64,000 bases of DNA, taken from assembly GCF_011045215.1 (NCBI RefSeq), contig NZ_CP049201.1; one strand, written 5' to 3'. The first letter of the stretch is position 1; every line of letters begins with the position of its first letter. The stretch is from Escherichia coli (lineage in GTDB: Bacteria; Pseudomonadota; Gammaproteobacteria; Enterobacterales; Enterobacteriaceae). Under the pieces are notes generated by a model. That model was not told where the DNA came from and made no database searches. It saw only the letters and a list, made by a program, of their open reading frames with translations. Below, one piece after another: positions 1-3,050 of this stretch. Position numbers and translations under genes: made by a program.

Positions 1-56
1 GCACTGCTGGACACCCAGCCCACATCCTGACGCGCTTCGCTTGTCTGCTGCTTCGC

Positions 57-81
57 CGGGGCATAAAAAATTTATGCCCCG
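57..81. other. Perfect inverted repeat / stem-loop (CGGGGCATAAA-aaa-TTTATGCCCCG)
   Basis: 11-bp arms read directly; no adjacent T-tract, so not a canonical intrinsic terminator. Confidence 0.5.
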
Positions 82-560
82 ACTCTCCAGCTCCTGTATC
101 AATCAGATAATTTCACGACGTCTTCCAGCTTATTGCCATCATCGACGGTCAGGCTCTTACGCAATCCCATCGCGCTGACTGCATGTTCTCGCCGCCTCAG
201 TGCGATTTTGACGGCCTTATCTGCCACCCCATCAAATCAAAAGCCCTCACGTCTTTTTCACGCTCAGCGTGAGAAATACAGCCATTCTGTTGTGTTGCTG
301 CGACATCGTTCAGGGGATGCTATTTATCCCCTGAAACGCGGGCTGTTCCCCCGTCACCTGCGCGCAGAAAAAACGCGTTTTTTTGTGCACGCACGGATCC
401 TTGACGGATCCAGCCGCCACGGGGGCCGGAAGGGCAAAAAGTCGTTCAAAAAAATTGTGCAAATTTGTGCACTATCGTGCAGTGTGCATCGTGCTGTTTT
501 CTGCGCAAAAAACGGATGGTAAATTTGTTCGTAGCAGGGAAATTTTAATGAGCGCAAGAC

Positions 561-1091
561 ATGAAGAAAGATTCATATCCTTATTTGATTTGCATGACTG
601 TTTCAGTGCTAGGGATTATTTTCCTCTTTTACTGGTGGAGGGCAGATATCTACAGGATTACATATCTTAATTCGCGTATATCCAATTATTACATCTTGTG
701 TAGTATGGGTATGTCCTTTTTCTTCTCCTTGTTTCTGGTGAAGAGGGGGGTAGTGAAGCAAAGTGGCTGGAAAGGACTGTCGGAATACCTGAAGGTTTAT
801 GCTGGCTCTTGCATTCTTACAGGGATATTCCTGATTATTCCTCTTATGATGGTGACTTATTTTTTACCAGGAGTAACATCATCATATGTTGCACCGTATG
901 AGTATACATCTGGTAGTTCAAGAAGCTGTTCCGGAGCGTTTGTTGATGATCCCGAACTGCATAAAAATATTCTTATTTGCTATCCGTATGGTAACTATGA
1001 ATATGACAATATTATCTATGTTGAAAAGAAAACTAATGCATTGGGCGTTGTTGTGACGTATGCACAGACTGCACGAGACGATGCTGAATAA
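561..1091 (+). CDS. Hypothetical polytopic membrane protein (about 3 predicted TM helices, soluble C-terminal ~80 aa); AT-rich cargo gene
   Basis: 176-aa ORF with three long hydrophobic segments; strongly AT-rich relative to flanking DNA; no family recognised. Confidence 0.5.
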   Translation: MKKDSYPYLICMTVSVLGIIFLFYWWRADIYRITYLNSRISNYYILCSMGMSFFFSLFLVKRGVVKQSGWKGLSEYLKVYAGSCILTGIFLIIPLMMVTYFLPGVTSSYVAPYEYTSGSSRSCSGAFVDDPELHKNILICYPYGNYEYDNIIYVEKKTNALGVVVTYAQTARDDAE

Positions 1092-1282
1092 GATACTACA
1101 GATATAGTCCACTTTTTTGTTTATTTGTCGGGATAAAAACAAATTACCCCGACTCACCATGTATTAATCTTCCGCTTTAAGTTAGTATTTTAGCTGCGCT
1201 GTCCTGCTATTCAGCAAAGCGGCGTACTTTAATGCGTCCTGTGCTTTCTGGAATTTAAGTGCATAGTCAGTGGCGATTTTTT

Positions 1283-1564
1283 CTAGTTCAGCGATTCGGT
1301 TGTTTTTGGTTTCCAGCCAATCAAGTAGCGCCAATACTTCAGGATCCCGACATCCAACACTGTTACGCGTGATTTTTCATAATGTTCGTCGGCAAGAGTT
1401 CGGCCAATTTTGAAATCTCCATCATCACCATAACCGGAGCAGGCATAAACAACCTGTGCTCCAGATATTCGCTGAATTGACATTTCCTCGCCGCAAATAG
1501 GGCATTTCGGTACTGGCACAGGTGAATAACGTTCACGTAATGCCTGATAGTTGATTTCGCTCAT
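1283..1564 (-). CDS. Small zinc-ribbon protein (CPICG...CSG); probably frameshifted, coding signal continues in another frame to 1185
   Basis: 93-aa ORF with CxxC...C motif; protein-like translation continues in a second frame (DPEVLALLDWLETKNNRIAELEK...) past the stop at 1283. Confidence 0.4.
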   Translation of the reverse strand: MSEINYQALRERYSPVPVPKCPICGEEMSIQRISGAQVVYACSGYGDDGDFKIGRTLADEHYEKSRVTVLDVGILKYWRYLIGWKPKTTESLN

Positions 1565-1627
1565 TAAGTCGTTCTCCTTGTTTATGTTCTGAGGTGGAGA
1601 GCAGGGCGAACTCGCCCTGATGTTGTG

Positions 1628-1939
1628 TTATTCAGGAAATAACGCCCGGATATTTCCGGCCATCTGACTGGTTATCTGTGCGGTTGATACTGGCTGTGAT
1701 GCGGGGCGTTCTGTCCTGGTTTGTGTCACTGATAACGCTTCATCATCAGCCCATGCAGCTAGTCGGTAAGCCTCTGCCGGATTCATTTTCAGAAGTGCCA
1801 GCCCGGCCAGAAAAGCCACACGTTGGCCGCTTTTGCGGGCTTCTGGTGTAAGGCTGTCCAGCCAGGCGCATGCTTCGCCTTCGTTCTTGACGGCGGCGGG
1901 CTTCAGATAGAAACTTATCCGTCTGGTTGGTGTCGTCAT
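1628..1939 (-). CDS. parR: ParR (StbB)-like centromere-binding protein
   Basis: 103 aa from Met at 1939; resembles plasmid R1 ParR (from memory); AAGGAG RBS; starts 4 nt after parM stop. Confidence 0.55.
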   Translation of the reverse strand: MTTPTRRISFYLKPAAVKNEGEACAWLDSLTPEARKSGQRVAFLAGLALLKMNPAEAYRLAAWADDEALSVTQTRTERPASQPVSTAQITSQMAGNIRALFPE

Positions 1940-1943
1940 TGGT

Positions 1944-2903
1944 TTACTCCTTGTCCATTGCGTACAGCCCATTAACCAGAGCAAACTGTGGCACCCCGTC
2001 CGCGATGAAAGTCGCATTAACTCCGCAGGCTTCGCGGATAGCGGGTGCCACAATCTCCGCCCCGCCACCGACAACCATCACCCGCCCGTAACCCGAAAAA
2101 ACCGCCAGCGCGCGGATCACGCGTTGTTTCAGTGTTTCTTCCTTTTCACGAATAACCGCCATCAGGCTGGCGTAATGCGCGTCATTGTGGATGTGTTGGC
2201 GCAACCAGGCTTCATCATGGCGATGTTCGATAATGGTATTGGCGATGTGGTGACTGGTACGCATACCGTTAGCGGCCATCACCGACAGCACGGCACCGGC
2301 CATCAGGGAGACGCCTACGTGTGGATCGCAAAACACCTGGCTGATACCTGCCAGTTGCCCCTGAACCTTTGCCACATCCAGCGTGGTTCCGCCTAAATCC
2401 ACAATCAGCAGGGATTCAAACGGACTCATGTCAGCCAGTGCTTTAAAGCCAGCCGGAATGGATTCAGGCATAACCCGCACGTTACGGATAGTGAATGCTT
2501 CGCCGTTCTGGTACTCCACCGGGCGCATAACGTTCGCTTTTTTGCGGTTGATGTTGGCCATGTCCGGCTGTGCGTTTGTGTCGAAATACTCGCTCAGTGG
2601 CAGGGTGACAACCACATCCACCTCCTGTGGCGTGATGCCTGATTTGACCAGCGTGTGATGAATGGCGATTACATTCACATCGCTGTACTGGTATTGCGTG
2701 TCGGTCGTCTGGACAAAGCGATCGCTGACCGGATCAAAACCATAGCGCACGCCATCAAGCATGTAGTTCGCGGGCTGCATGCCACCGAACGGCGCAGATC
2801 ATTCCGACTTGAAGCTGTTCGGGCTGATGGCGTTGCGGCGTTCGCCATTCTCAGTCCATGCCAGCTTGATGTTGGTGGAGCCGTCGTCGATACAAATTTT
2901 CAT
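1944..2903 (-). pseudogene. parM: ParM (StbA)-like actin-type partition ATPase, interrupted by in-frame TGA at 2799-2801
   Basis: N-terminus MKICIDDGSTNIKLAW...NSFKSE then TGA, then in-frame continuation SAPFGGMQPANYML...; strong similarity to R1 ParM (from memory), where this position is Trp. Confidence 0.75.
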
Positions 2904-2932
2904 GTCGCTTTTCCTTATGTTGATTAATTAAT

Positions 2933-3050
2933 CGTTTACGGGATTCTGAAATCCCGTTTTTGCCTGTTTTGTGTGCGCTTCATATATCGCGGCGCGTTTT
3001 TTGCTCATTTACGGGATTTGTGAATCCCGTTTCTGTCTGTTTTTTGTTTC
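2933..3050. repeat. Two copies (2933-2975, 3006-3050) of a ~45-bp repeat, each with palindrome ACGGGATT-N4-AATCCCGT; candidate parC-like centromere/operator
   Basis: Direct repeat with internal inverted repeat, immediately upstream of the parM start. Confidence 0.6.

Follow-up and report, generated by a model that had tools for sequence, protein, structure and literature searches.

Two stem-loops, the cos region and a variable cargo module in a P88-like prophage of Escherichia coli

Why do two stem-loops that share a nine-nucleotide motif stand on either side of a palindrome-rich non-coding region and a gene for a predicted membrane protein? The question is raised by the start of the window, by which we mean the whole 64,000-nucleotide stretch of E. 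coli DNA that was analysed (contig NZ_CP049201.1). A preliminary description had proposed that hairpins at 57-81 and 1127-1153, each overlapping a copy of CCCCGACTC, mark the ends of a small inserted cassette or represent paired attachment or terminator structures. The account that we consider probable is that the two stem-loops are independent transcript-end hairpins of two transcription units in a P88-like prophage, that CCCCGACTC is most likely shared by coincidence between two GC-rich stem arms, and that the insert is the segment 483-1194.

Prophage setting and gene order

The window starts in the interior of a P88-like prophage (Xuanwuvirus, P2-like), as seen from matches to P88-like phages; several records carry an annotation of this gene order. 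From left to right, the 3´ end of the portal gene is followed by hairpin 1, the cos region, a low-GC membrane-protein gene, hairpin 2, a broken ead/Ea22-like gene, ParR, ParM and a replication endonuclease. The only integrase and the prophage end are found approximately 12 kb away, adjoining yecA. The features of the locus are:

1-30, plus strand: portal gene (gpQ homologue), 3´ end only; the stop codon is 28-30 according to RefSeq and phage records.
25-98, plus strand: portable end-of-operon module of 74 bp that holds hairpin 1 and is kept after the portal gene.
57-81, plus strand: hairpin 1, CGGGGCATAAA-AAA-TTTATGCCCCG, with a perfect 11-bp stem, a 3-nt loop and no T-tract.
77-85, plus strand: CCCCGACTC copy 1, reaching from the 3´ arm of hairpin 1 into 4 nt of its tail.
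99-227, minus strand: small ORF of 42 aa, hypothetical in P88 and P88_4B11 and convergent with the portal gene.
230-482, no strand: palindrome-rich non-coding region, the cos (packaging) region of a P2-like phage, with the portal gene on one side and the cargo hotspot on the other, as in P2, and with its core at 337-481.
447-481, no strand: highly conserved cos-flank block, CAAAAAAATTGTGCAAATTTGTGCACTATCGTGCA, directly after which every cargo variant diverges.
483-1194, plus strand: variable module of 712 bp, a moron-like cargo unit of low GC content, delimited by its junctions against L006 and L007.
515-523, plus strand: candidate extended -10 promoter element, TGGTAAATT, conserved in homologues.
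561-1091, plus strand: gene for a predicted membrane protein of 176 aa, matching phrog_1416 in PHROGs.
1127-1153, plus strand: hairpin 2, GTCGGGATAA-AAACAAA-TTACCCCGAC, with a 10-position stem containing one A.C mismatch and a 7-nt loop.
1147-1155, plus strand: CCCCGACTC copy 2, reaching from the 3´ arm of hairpin 2 into 2 nt of its tail.
1195-1564, minus strand: ead/Ea22-like gene, truncated and frameshifted (Pfam Ead_Ea22 at 1e-14), a pseudogene in RefSeq.
1628-1942, minus strand: ParR-like partition/stability gene (Pfam Plasmid_stab_B at 2e-24).

The portal protein is annotated with this same end in P88, Shae_phiSM, Chuche and E. coli 2011C-4251 in RefSeq and phage records. The small ORF that follows has no family match in Pfam, PHROG, NCBIfam or PADLOC. 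It lies inside the interval that had been described as holding only the palindromic region and the membrane gene, both of which are indeed present. Rfam was searched with positions 1-3000 at E<=1 and returned no known RNA family. A simple scan of the same positions, for promoters by the sigma-70 consensus and for terminators, returned no promoters and called neither hairpin a terminator.

The palindrome-rich stretch is identified with the packaging site. The stretch 86-482 is the essential, conserved cos region, kept in every relative, and its core is conserved even in Enterobacter phage phiT5282H, which belongs to a different genus. Two observations suggest different places for the exact cos cut site: the linear P88_4B11 record terminates at 432/433, but a 17-mer at 342-358 resembles cosL of P2.

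Boundaries and character of the inserted segment

An insertion polymorphism exists within the interval, and in this respect the proposal of a small inserted cassette was sound. Its ends are elsewhere. Relatives always diverge on the left at 481-484 (482/483) and on the right at 1194/1195, at approximately 1576 or at 1625-1633 (approximately 1628), never at the 9-mers. In P88, Shae_phiSM, Chuche and 520873, homology picks up again at 1576-1633, and the ParR-like gene is the point where most relatives rejoin the conserved backbone. Two prophages that are otherwise 97% identical, L006 and L007, lack the module and keep a full ead/Ea22-like gene of 196 aa, the C-terminal part of which has been swapped out for the 483-1194 module in the present prophage. 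The GC content across the module is 35-43%, in a dip that spans 450-1275, against approximately 52-58% in the flanks.

These boundaries bear directly on the idea that the CCCCGACTC hairpins are paired attachment or recombination ends of a 1.07-kb cassette made up of the structured region and the membrane gene. The 9-mer occurs at both positions given for it and nowhere else in the 64-kb window, where 0.26 copies are expected, both copies overlap the 3´ arm of a hairpin, and the interval does contain the polymorphism described above. The mapped junctions (482/483 and 1194/1195, also 1576 and 1628) nevertheless refute such a cassette: relatives show no presence or absence at the 9-mers, an outcome that the preliminary description had itself named as refuting its proposal. 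Copy 1 is 400 bp deep in invariant backbone, and copy 2 falls within the variable module, 40 bp from its edge, so that the repeats do not coincide with the ends of the polymorphic segment. The cassette would also have to include the cos region, and more than 1,000 genomes carry copy 1 without copy 2. The predicted hybrid junction of hairpin 1 and hairpin 2 had no full-length match in 5,426 complete E. coli genomes, where only the parental sites were found, and the 9-mer itself is variable at both sites. We therefore consider this explanation scarcely credible. Two specific versions of it were rejected, prophage attachment sites because the integrase and the prophage end are at yecA, and integron attC or dif-like sites because the boundaries are in the wrong places and no recombinase is adjacent. 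The likeness to attC or att cassettes is superficial, consisting of two imperfectly similar hairpins approximately 1 kb apart around a gene; here, the repeats are off the polymorphism boundaries, there is neither an empty site nor a hybrid junction, no recombinase is adjacent, and the motif is not conserved.

Instead, the 712-bp module fills a known cargo hotspot of P2-like phages. This cos-proximal hotspot lies between gpA and gpQ, holds old and tin in P2, and comprises 1,650 arrangements (Rousset et al., 2022, PMC9122126; Odegrip et al., 2006, as cited there on the cos-proximal cargo and defence hotspot of P2-like phages). At least six cargo arrangements occupy the present site among the relatives L001-L009, with conserved flanks, and the site falls at the location of the hotspot, between the portal gene with cos and the gpA replication operon. 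In the old-tin unit of P2 the transcript starts beside cos, and the module shares this position and orientation, with a cargo gene that is read away from cos. The organization differs from that of P2-like phages in general in that parM, parR and often an ead/Ea22-like gene separate gpA from the hotspot in P88-like phages. It also differs in its cargo, which is an uncharacterised membrane protein without a PADLOC match.

A moron, in the concept of Hendrix, Juhala and colleagues, is a unit of promoter, gene and terminator inserted between backbone genes of temperate phages. The module resembles one in being a discrete low-GC unit that shows presence/absence polymorphism together with deviant composition, in being on the strand opposite to the neighbouring operon, in having a conserved promoter-like element and a 3´ hairpin, and in recurring as the same unit in unrelated lambdoid phages. 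It differs in that its promoter and terminator activities are putative, being read from sequence, and in that hairpin 2 has no T-tail in this lineage. The real insert would thus be a moron-like unit, composed of a candidate extended -10 promoter, the 176-aa membrane-protein gene and hairpin 2, between cos and the early replication operon.

The two hairpins and the shared 9-mer

Hairpin 1 is as perfect as had been described. It begins 27 nt past the portal stop codon, has six G-C pairs in its 11-bp stem, and thus shows the GC-rich stem-loop of an intrinsic terminator; read on the minus strand, the stem is 13 bp long. It folds at -22 and -29 kcal/mol (z-scores -5.1 and -7.9). Directly 3´ of the stem there is no T run, the tail being ACTCTCCAG. 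Across relatives, in a set of only five distinct sequences, 96% of the stem cells are paired and two of the pairs have changed at both positions.

Hairpin 1 is part of the conserved backbone. The region 1-240 is found in 1,158 of the 5,426 complete E. coli genomes, and hairpin 1 is identical past the portal stop in P88, Shae_phiSM, Chuche, 520873 and P88_4B11, all with other cargo and no second 9-mer. In phiT5282H, the corresponding place is taken by a 10-bp GC hairpin. The 74-bp module that holds hairpin 1 is also present 3´ of the ogr/Delta gene in L079, another P2-like prophage, where the stem carries a T-A to A-T swap, and a degenerate copy is found in an island (L080).

The most likely interpretation is that hairpin 1, which stands where the late operon ends, is the counterpart of the P2 tQ terminator. 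The annotated tQ, a putative rho-independent terminator, follows Q at the end of the P operon, and the likeness consists of a GC-rich stem-loop just past the portal stop, with the late operon on one side and cos on the other. In sequence the two are not similar, and tQ has a canonical TTTTTT tail, whereas hairpin 1 runs into ACTCTCC, its runs of A and T lying in the inner stem and the loop. Hairpin 1 may end or stabilise the late terminase-portal transcript ahead of the cos region (approximately 230-482), as its position and conservation suggest.

The second hairpin also exists, in an imperfect and weak form. Its energy is -10 kcal/mol, with z-scores of -0.8 to -2.0. It begins 36 nt past the stop codon of the membrane gene, pairs at nine of the ten stem positions, as a terminator stem-loop would, and is followed directly by TCACCATG with no T run. 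In the lambdoid copies of the module it reads TCGAGGTAA-TATAAT-TTACCTCGA, with a perfect 9-bp stem followed by the moderately T-rich CTCGTTTATTCTGG. Among only seven distinct sequences, 91% of the stem cells are paired; two pairs have changed at both positions and two have become G.U. One of the double changes, from A-T to G-C, divides the P2-like from the lambdoid lineages. The mismatch is mended in L020, and the U.G or G.U changes of L010 and L021 form pairs only in plus-strand RNA. Hairpin 2 is located 40 bp inside the module and travels with the membrane gene into lambdoid phages. It is most likely the 3´ hairpin of the cargo gene, which it would separate from the convergent early operon, and in this lineage it has gained one mismatch and lost its T-rich tail through a 5-nt deletion.

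As neither hairpin has a T-tract here and neither was flagged by the scan, we infer termination from position and conservation only. The earlier suggestion of terminator-type structures is plausible to that extent, and only its notion of paired ends or attachment sites falls away.

The hairpins flank the cos region on either side, and this raises the possibility that they act as DNA, as accessory protein-binding sites for packaging, e.g. of the terminase or a host factor. The strong conservation of the hairpin 1 sequence would agree with such a role. Arguing against it, the great majority of phages with the same cos region are without hairpin 2, only 337-481 of the cos core is common to a different genus, hairpin 1 accepts compensatory changes in its stem and occurs after ogr with no adjacent cos in L079, and the G.U-type changes in hairpin 2 fit a stem in plus-strand RNA. 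We regard a packaging role at the DNA level as quite improbable.

What, then, of the shared CCCCGACTC? Positions 1-1200 hold three repeated 9-mers, against a mean of approximately six per 1,200-bp tile of the window, and since repeated 9-mers are ordinary on this scale, the rarity of this particular one loses weight as evidence. The motif varies independently at the two sites while the stems stay paired. At site 1, L021 has CCCCGGCTC and phage 503458 has CCCCGA-TC; site 2 reads TCCCGACTC in L020, CCCTGACTC in L021 and CCTCGACTC in all lambdoid copies. Within L021, the two sites differ at two of nine positions.

One alternative to coincidence is that the hairpins are diverged copies of a single portable terminator module of approximately 50-70 bp that caps operons in P2-like phages, whether behind the portal gene, ogr or hotspot cargo, and the copies of which might provide short homology for cargo swaps. 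The hairpin 1 module is portable, as its presence after ogr in L079 demonstrates. A local alignment of hairpin 1 with hairpin 2 scores 17 over 50 columns (p<0.0005 against shuffles), with 12 of 13 positions alike around the motif. The exact 13-mer CCCCGACTCACCA is common to hairpin 1 of L079 and hairpin 2 of the window, and BLAST places a synthetic hybrid of both hairpins on the hairpin 2 site, with 89% identity across 52 nt. In view of the extended similarity and the 13-mer, common descent retains a small share of the probability. Against these observations stand the control comparisons, in which unrelated non-hairpin places in the same 64-kb window reach equal scores of 17, 16 and 16, and the score of only 8-9 (p 0.06-0.22) between the lambdoid form of hairpin 2 and hairpin 1. 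The CACCA tail of hairpin 2 comes from a lineage-specific 5-nt deletion, the sequences 3´ of distant Salmonella and Enterobacter homologues of the gene are unrelated to CCCCGACTC, and no junction between relatives falls inside either hairpin. Descent from one module is thus unlikely, and we prefer two hairpins of independent origin that share a motif by chance.

The cargo gene and its movement between phage families

The hairpin-bounded cassette is hereby withdrawn as a lead, and the interval is assigned to features that are well described in P2-like phages: a stem-loop where the late operon ends, cos, and a hotspot cargo gene with its own 3´ hairpin. Each of these is already known in kind for this group.

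The membrane protein has no Pfam, NCBIfam or PADLOC family, and phrog_1416 is its sole match in PHROGs. Its homologues occur only in Enterobacteriaceae, all of them named hypothetical, and the distant ones in Salmonella and Enterobacter P2-like prophages occupy the same slot beside cos. Upstream of the gene, TGnTAAnTT is kept at the position of the promoter candidate in every homologue across the range of 55-100% protein identity, although the sigma-70 consensus scan flagged no promoter.

At 95% identity or more, copies of the module are present in approximately 76 of 5,426 complete E. coli genomes. Copies at 77% identity are found in lambdoid prophages of approximately 920 of these genomes; lambdoid carriers, at 76-77% identity, are 434, 2B8, mEp332 and prophages at ybhC. 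The lambdoid copies retain a recognisable relic of a P2-type cos flank. A block of approximately 1 kb, comprising this relic, the membrane gene and the hairpin, could have passed from a P2-like phage to lambdoid phages such as 434 and settled in their early-left region, a transfer that is better supported than the derivation of both hairpins from one module.

In conclusion, the phrog_1416 family is widespread, both in the cos slot of enterobacterial P2-like prophages and in lambdoid prophages of the complete E. coli genomes. Its spread through both kinds of prophage makes it a reasonable candidate for a function in lysogenic conversion or exclusion, and the cos-flank relic in the lambdoid copies documents the direction of transfer between the two phage families.

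Genomic setting of the two hairpins

Over its first 2 kb, the window is matched by phages and prophages of the P88-like type (genus Xuanwuvirus, family Peduoviridae, P2-like). In the orientation of the window, annotated relatives carry the terminase large subunit, the portal gene (stop codon at 28–30 in the window), a non-coding region, variable genes, and genes for a ParR-like protein, ParM and a gpA-type replication endonuclease; these last three read from the minus strand toward the non-coding region. In E. coli 2011C-4251, which is 98.5% identical to the window over 1–3000, the early operon extends back to a repressor and Cox-like pair and the integrase adjoins yecA, ~12 kb away from the hairpins, which therefore lie far from the prophage ends. 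A putative small ORF of 42 aa at 99–227 on the minus strand, convergent with the portal gene, is “hypothetical” in the P88 and P88_4B11 records and matched no family.

Features of the region (positions in the window unless a related locus is named)
57–81: hairpin 1, perfect stem of 11 bp closed by a 3-nt loop; 13 bp on the minus strand (folding)
515–523: TGnTAAnTT motif TGGTAAATT, conserved upstream of the membrane gene
561–1091: membrane protein, 176 aa, phrog_1416
1127–1153: hairpin 2, stem of 10 positions, one of them an A.C mismatch, closed by a 7-nt loop (folding)
1182–1564, minus strand: remnant of an ead/Ea22-like gene, cut at 1194/1195 by the module that carries the membrane gene and hairpin 2, and also frameshifted; a RefSeq pseudogene
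2778–3736 of L011 (phage 434) and 2846–3804 of L012 (E. coli O157:H7 EC4115): ~1-kb lambdoid block related to the module

The shared 9-mer and the limits of the variable segment

The preliminary description was right that hairpin 1 is perfect and that CCCCGACTC is shared by 77–85 (site 1) and 1147–1155 (site 2). The window has no further copy (expected copies, 0.26). A 9-mer repeated inside 1.2 kb is nothing unusual: this stretch holds three, against a mean of about six per 1,200-bp tile of the window. Nor do the two sites keep a common sequence in relatives. All lambdoid copies have CCTCGACTC at site 2, where some P88-type copies show TCCCGACTC or CCCTGACTC; at site 1, phage 503458 has CCCCGA-TC and L021 has CCCCGGCTC. 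In L021, a near-identical module copy, the two sites agree at only 7 of 9 positions. In distant homologues (55–65% identity; Salmonella, Enterobacter) nothing like CCCCGACTC was found downstream of the membrane gene or the portal gene.

The two hairpins had been proposed as the ends of a 1.07-kb cassette or as attachment sites. An insert does exist, the 712-bp module at 483–1194 (35–43% GC, against 52–58% in the flanks), but it does not end at the hairpins. In pairwise comparisons its left boundary falls at 481–484 in every relative, and its right boundary at 1195 (L006, L007, L008), ~1576 (P88, L009) or 1625–1633 (Shae_phiSM, Chuche, 520873, 503458). Site 1 therefore lies 400 bp inside the invariant backbone and site 2 lies 40 bp inside the module, and comparison of related loci revealed no presence/absence boundary at the 9-mers. 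In L006 and L007, prophages with 97% identity to the window on both flanks, 483–1194 gives way to 258 bp that supply the C-terminal coding part and the terminator of an ead/Ea22-like gene, which is full-length there (product of 196 aa). A search of 5,426 complete E. coli genomes for the junction predicted from recombination between the 9-mers gave only the parental sites and nothing matching it in full, and the prophage ends are far off. The reading of the hairpins as cassette ends or attachment sites thus fails. Most probably they are instead two independent transcript-end hairpins whose GC-rich 3´ arms share nine bases by chance, hairpin 1 being the counterpart of the P2 terminator tQ and hairpin 2 belonging to a cargo gene.

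The variable segment corresponds to a site already described in P2-like phages, the cos-proximal hotspot, which lies between gpA and gpQ and is occupied in P2 by old and tin (PMC9122126). Like P2's old-tin transcript, which starts beside cos, the membrane gene begins beside cos and reads away; it is convergent with the early operon.

Hairpin 1 and the cos region

Hairpin 1 is part of the conserved backbone. P88, Shae_phiSM, Chuche, 520873 and P88_4B11 are identical to the window from the portal stop codon to the 9-mer, hairpin included, and all of them carry other cargo and no second CCCCGACTC; 1–240 is found in 1,158 of the 5,426 genomes, the membrane-gene module (at least 95% identity) in only ~76. 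Folding energies are -22.2 and -28.9 kcal/mol (z-scores -5.1 and -7.9), and across variants 96% of stem cells are paired; at two pairs both partners have changed (U-A to A-U, G-C to A-U). At the corresponding position, 3´ of the portal gene Q and ahead of cos, phage P2 has the annotated terminator tQ, and Enterobacter phage phiT5282H has a 10-bp GC hairpin. Since hairpin 1 has no T-tract and was not flagged by a simple terminator scan, we infer from position and conservation that it ends the late transcript or stabilises its 3´ end.

A 74-bp piece (25–98) recurs directly 3´ of an ogr/Delta gene in another prophage of the P2-like type (L079, E. coli strain 48, 1499–1576), where the stem has undergone a compensatory change and the tail reads ACTCACC, and in degenerate form in an island beside a STY4528-family replication gene (L080, strain SCU-171, 1499–1572). 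The hairpin 1 module is thus demonstrably portable, and an exact 13-mer is common to its L079 copy and hairpin 2; both facts would suit descent of the two hairpins from one portable terminator module. Their likeness does outreach the 9-mer, covering 12 of 13 positions around it, and their local alignment (score 17, 50 columns) exceeds that of every shuffle of the hairpin 2 segment. However, aligning hairpin 1 with unrelated parts of the window that are not hairpins yields scores of 17, 16 and 16, so that chance alone produces equally good matches in the window. Neither the lambdoid nor the more distant versions show the likeness; we regard common descent as improbable. As an independent element, hairpin 1 would close the late operon in the manner of tQ.

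The palindromic structured region that follows is the cos region, as supported by its position, conservation, record ends and likeness to the P2 cohesive end. It occupies the cos position of P2, between Q and the old/tin region; its core (337–481) is conserved in phiT5282H, which belongs to another genus; both ends of the linear GenBank record of P88_4B11 fall at window 432/433; and 342–358, read in the expected orientation, agrees with the P2 cohesive end at 12 of 17 positions. The last two indications place the cut differently, at 432/433 and at 342–358. Block CAAAAAAATTGTGCAAATTTGTGCACTATCGTGCA (447–481) is identical in phiT5282H and nearly so in Salmonella and Enterobacter P2-like prophages, and all cargo variants diverge right after it; it is probably an essential cos-flank, putative terminase-binding, element that fixes the left edge of the hotspot. 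Hairpin 2 is missing from most phages that have this cos region, which makes a DNA-level packaging role for the two hairpins unlikely.

Relatives with minus-strand cargo (L001, L004, L005, L006, L009, L017) have a GC-rich hairpin directly against the cos flank, after this block, and several of these hairpins carry a canonical minus-strand T-tail, e.g. AAAAAAAGCGCCTTATCGGCGCTT. It follows that a cargo unit beside cos generally finishes with a hairpin, which would protect cos from read-through.

Hairpin 2, the membrane gene and their probable transfer

Hairpin 2, a component of the module, is present as first described but weak (~-10 kcal/mol, z-scores -0.8 to -2.0). Its lambdoid counterpart is a perfect 9-bp stem, TCGAGGTAA-TATAAT-TTACCTCGA, followed by CTCGTTTATTCTGG (-12.9 kcal/mol, z-score -2.75). 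Relative to this, the window has one compensatory change (A-T to G-C), one disruption (G-C to A.C) and a 5-nt deletion, through which the T-rich tail is lost and a CACCA arises that resembles the tail of hairpin 1. Among near-identical module copies, L020 has TCCCGACTC, with the mismatch repaired to give a perfect 10-bp stem (-14.8 kcal/mol), CCCTGACTC in L021 gives a G.U pair, and GTTGGG in L010 and L018 gives a U.G pair. Overall 91% of stem cells pair, and two pairs are changed on both sides. The G.U-type changes pair in plus-strand RNA only, which fits a 3´-terminal hairpin of the membrane-gene mRNA. Most probably hairpin 2 is the 3´ hairpin, by now partly decayed, of a moron-like cargo gene that occupies the known cos-proximal hotspot. 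At the other end of the gene, TGnTAAnTT, 38–46 nt upstream of the start codon, is kept in every homologue (55 to 100% identity); the copy at 515–523, missed by a simple consensus promoter scan, is a candidate extended -10 promoter element.

A counterpart of the module, 76–77% identical, is present in ~920 of the 5,426 genomes and in phages 434, 2B8 and mEp332, placed between xis and the TraR/exo genes of lambdoid prophages on the strand opposite the early-left operon. The homology exceeds the module, comprising 419–1196, 253–345 (71% identity, E=7e-9) and a short match at 1271–1321; it includes the P88 backbone cos flank, and 346–418 is absent. Because the lambdoid copies hold this cos flank and the 55–65%-identity homologues of Salmonella and Enterobacter all lie in the cos-adjacent slot of P2-like prophages, the ~1-kb block looks, from sequence comparison, to have reached the xis-exo region of lambdoid phages from a P2-like phage and to have lost the packaging core afterwards, leaving a cos-flank relic.

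The phrog_1416 membrane protein is limited to Enterobacteriaceae and has no annotated function anywhere. Its gene is a recurrent first occupant of the cos-adjacent slot in P2-like prophages of E. coli, Salmonella and Enterobacter, and is a candidate lysogenic-conversion or exclusion gene.
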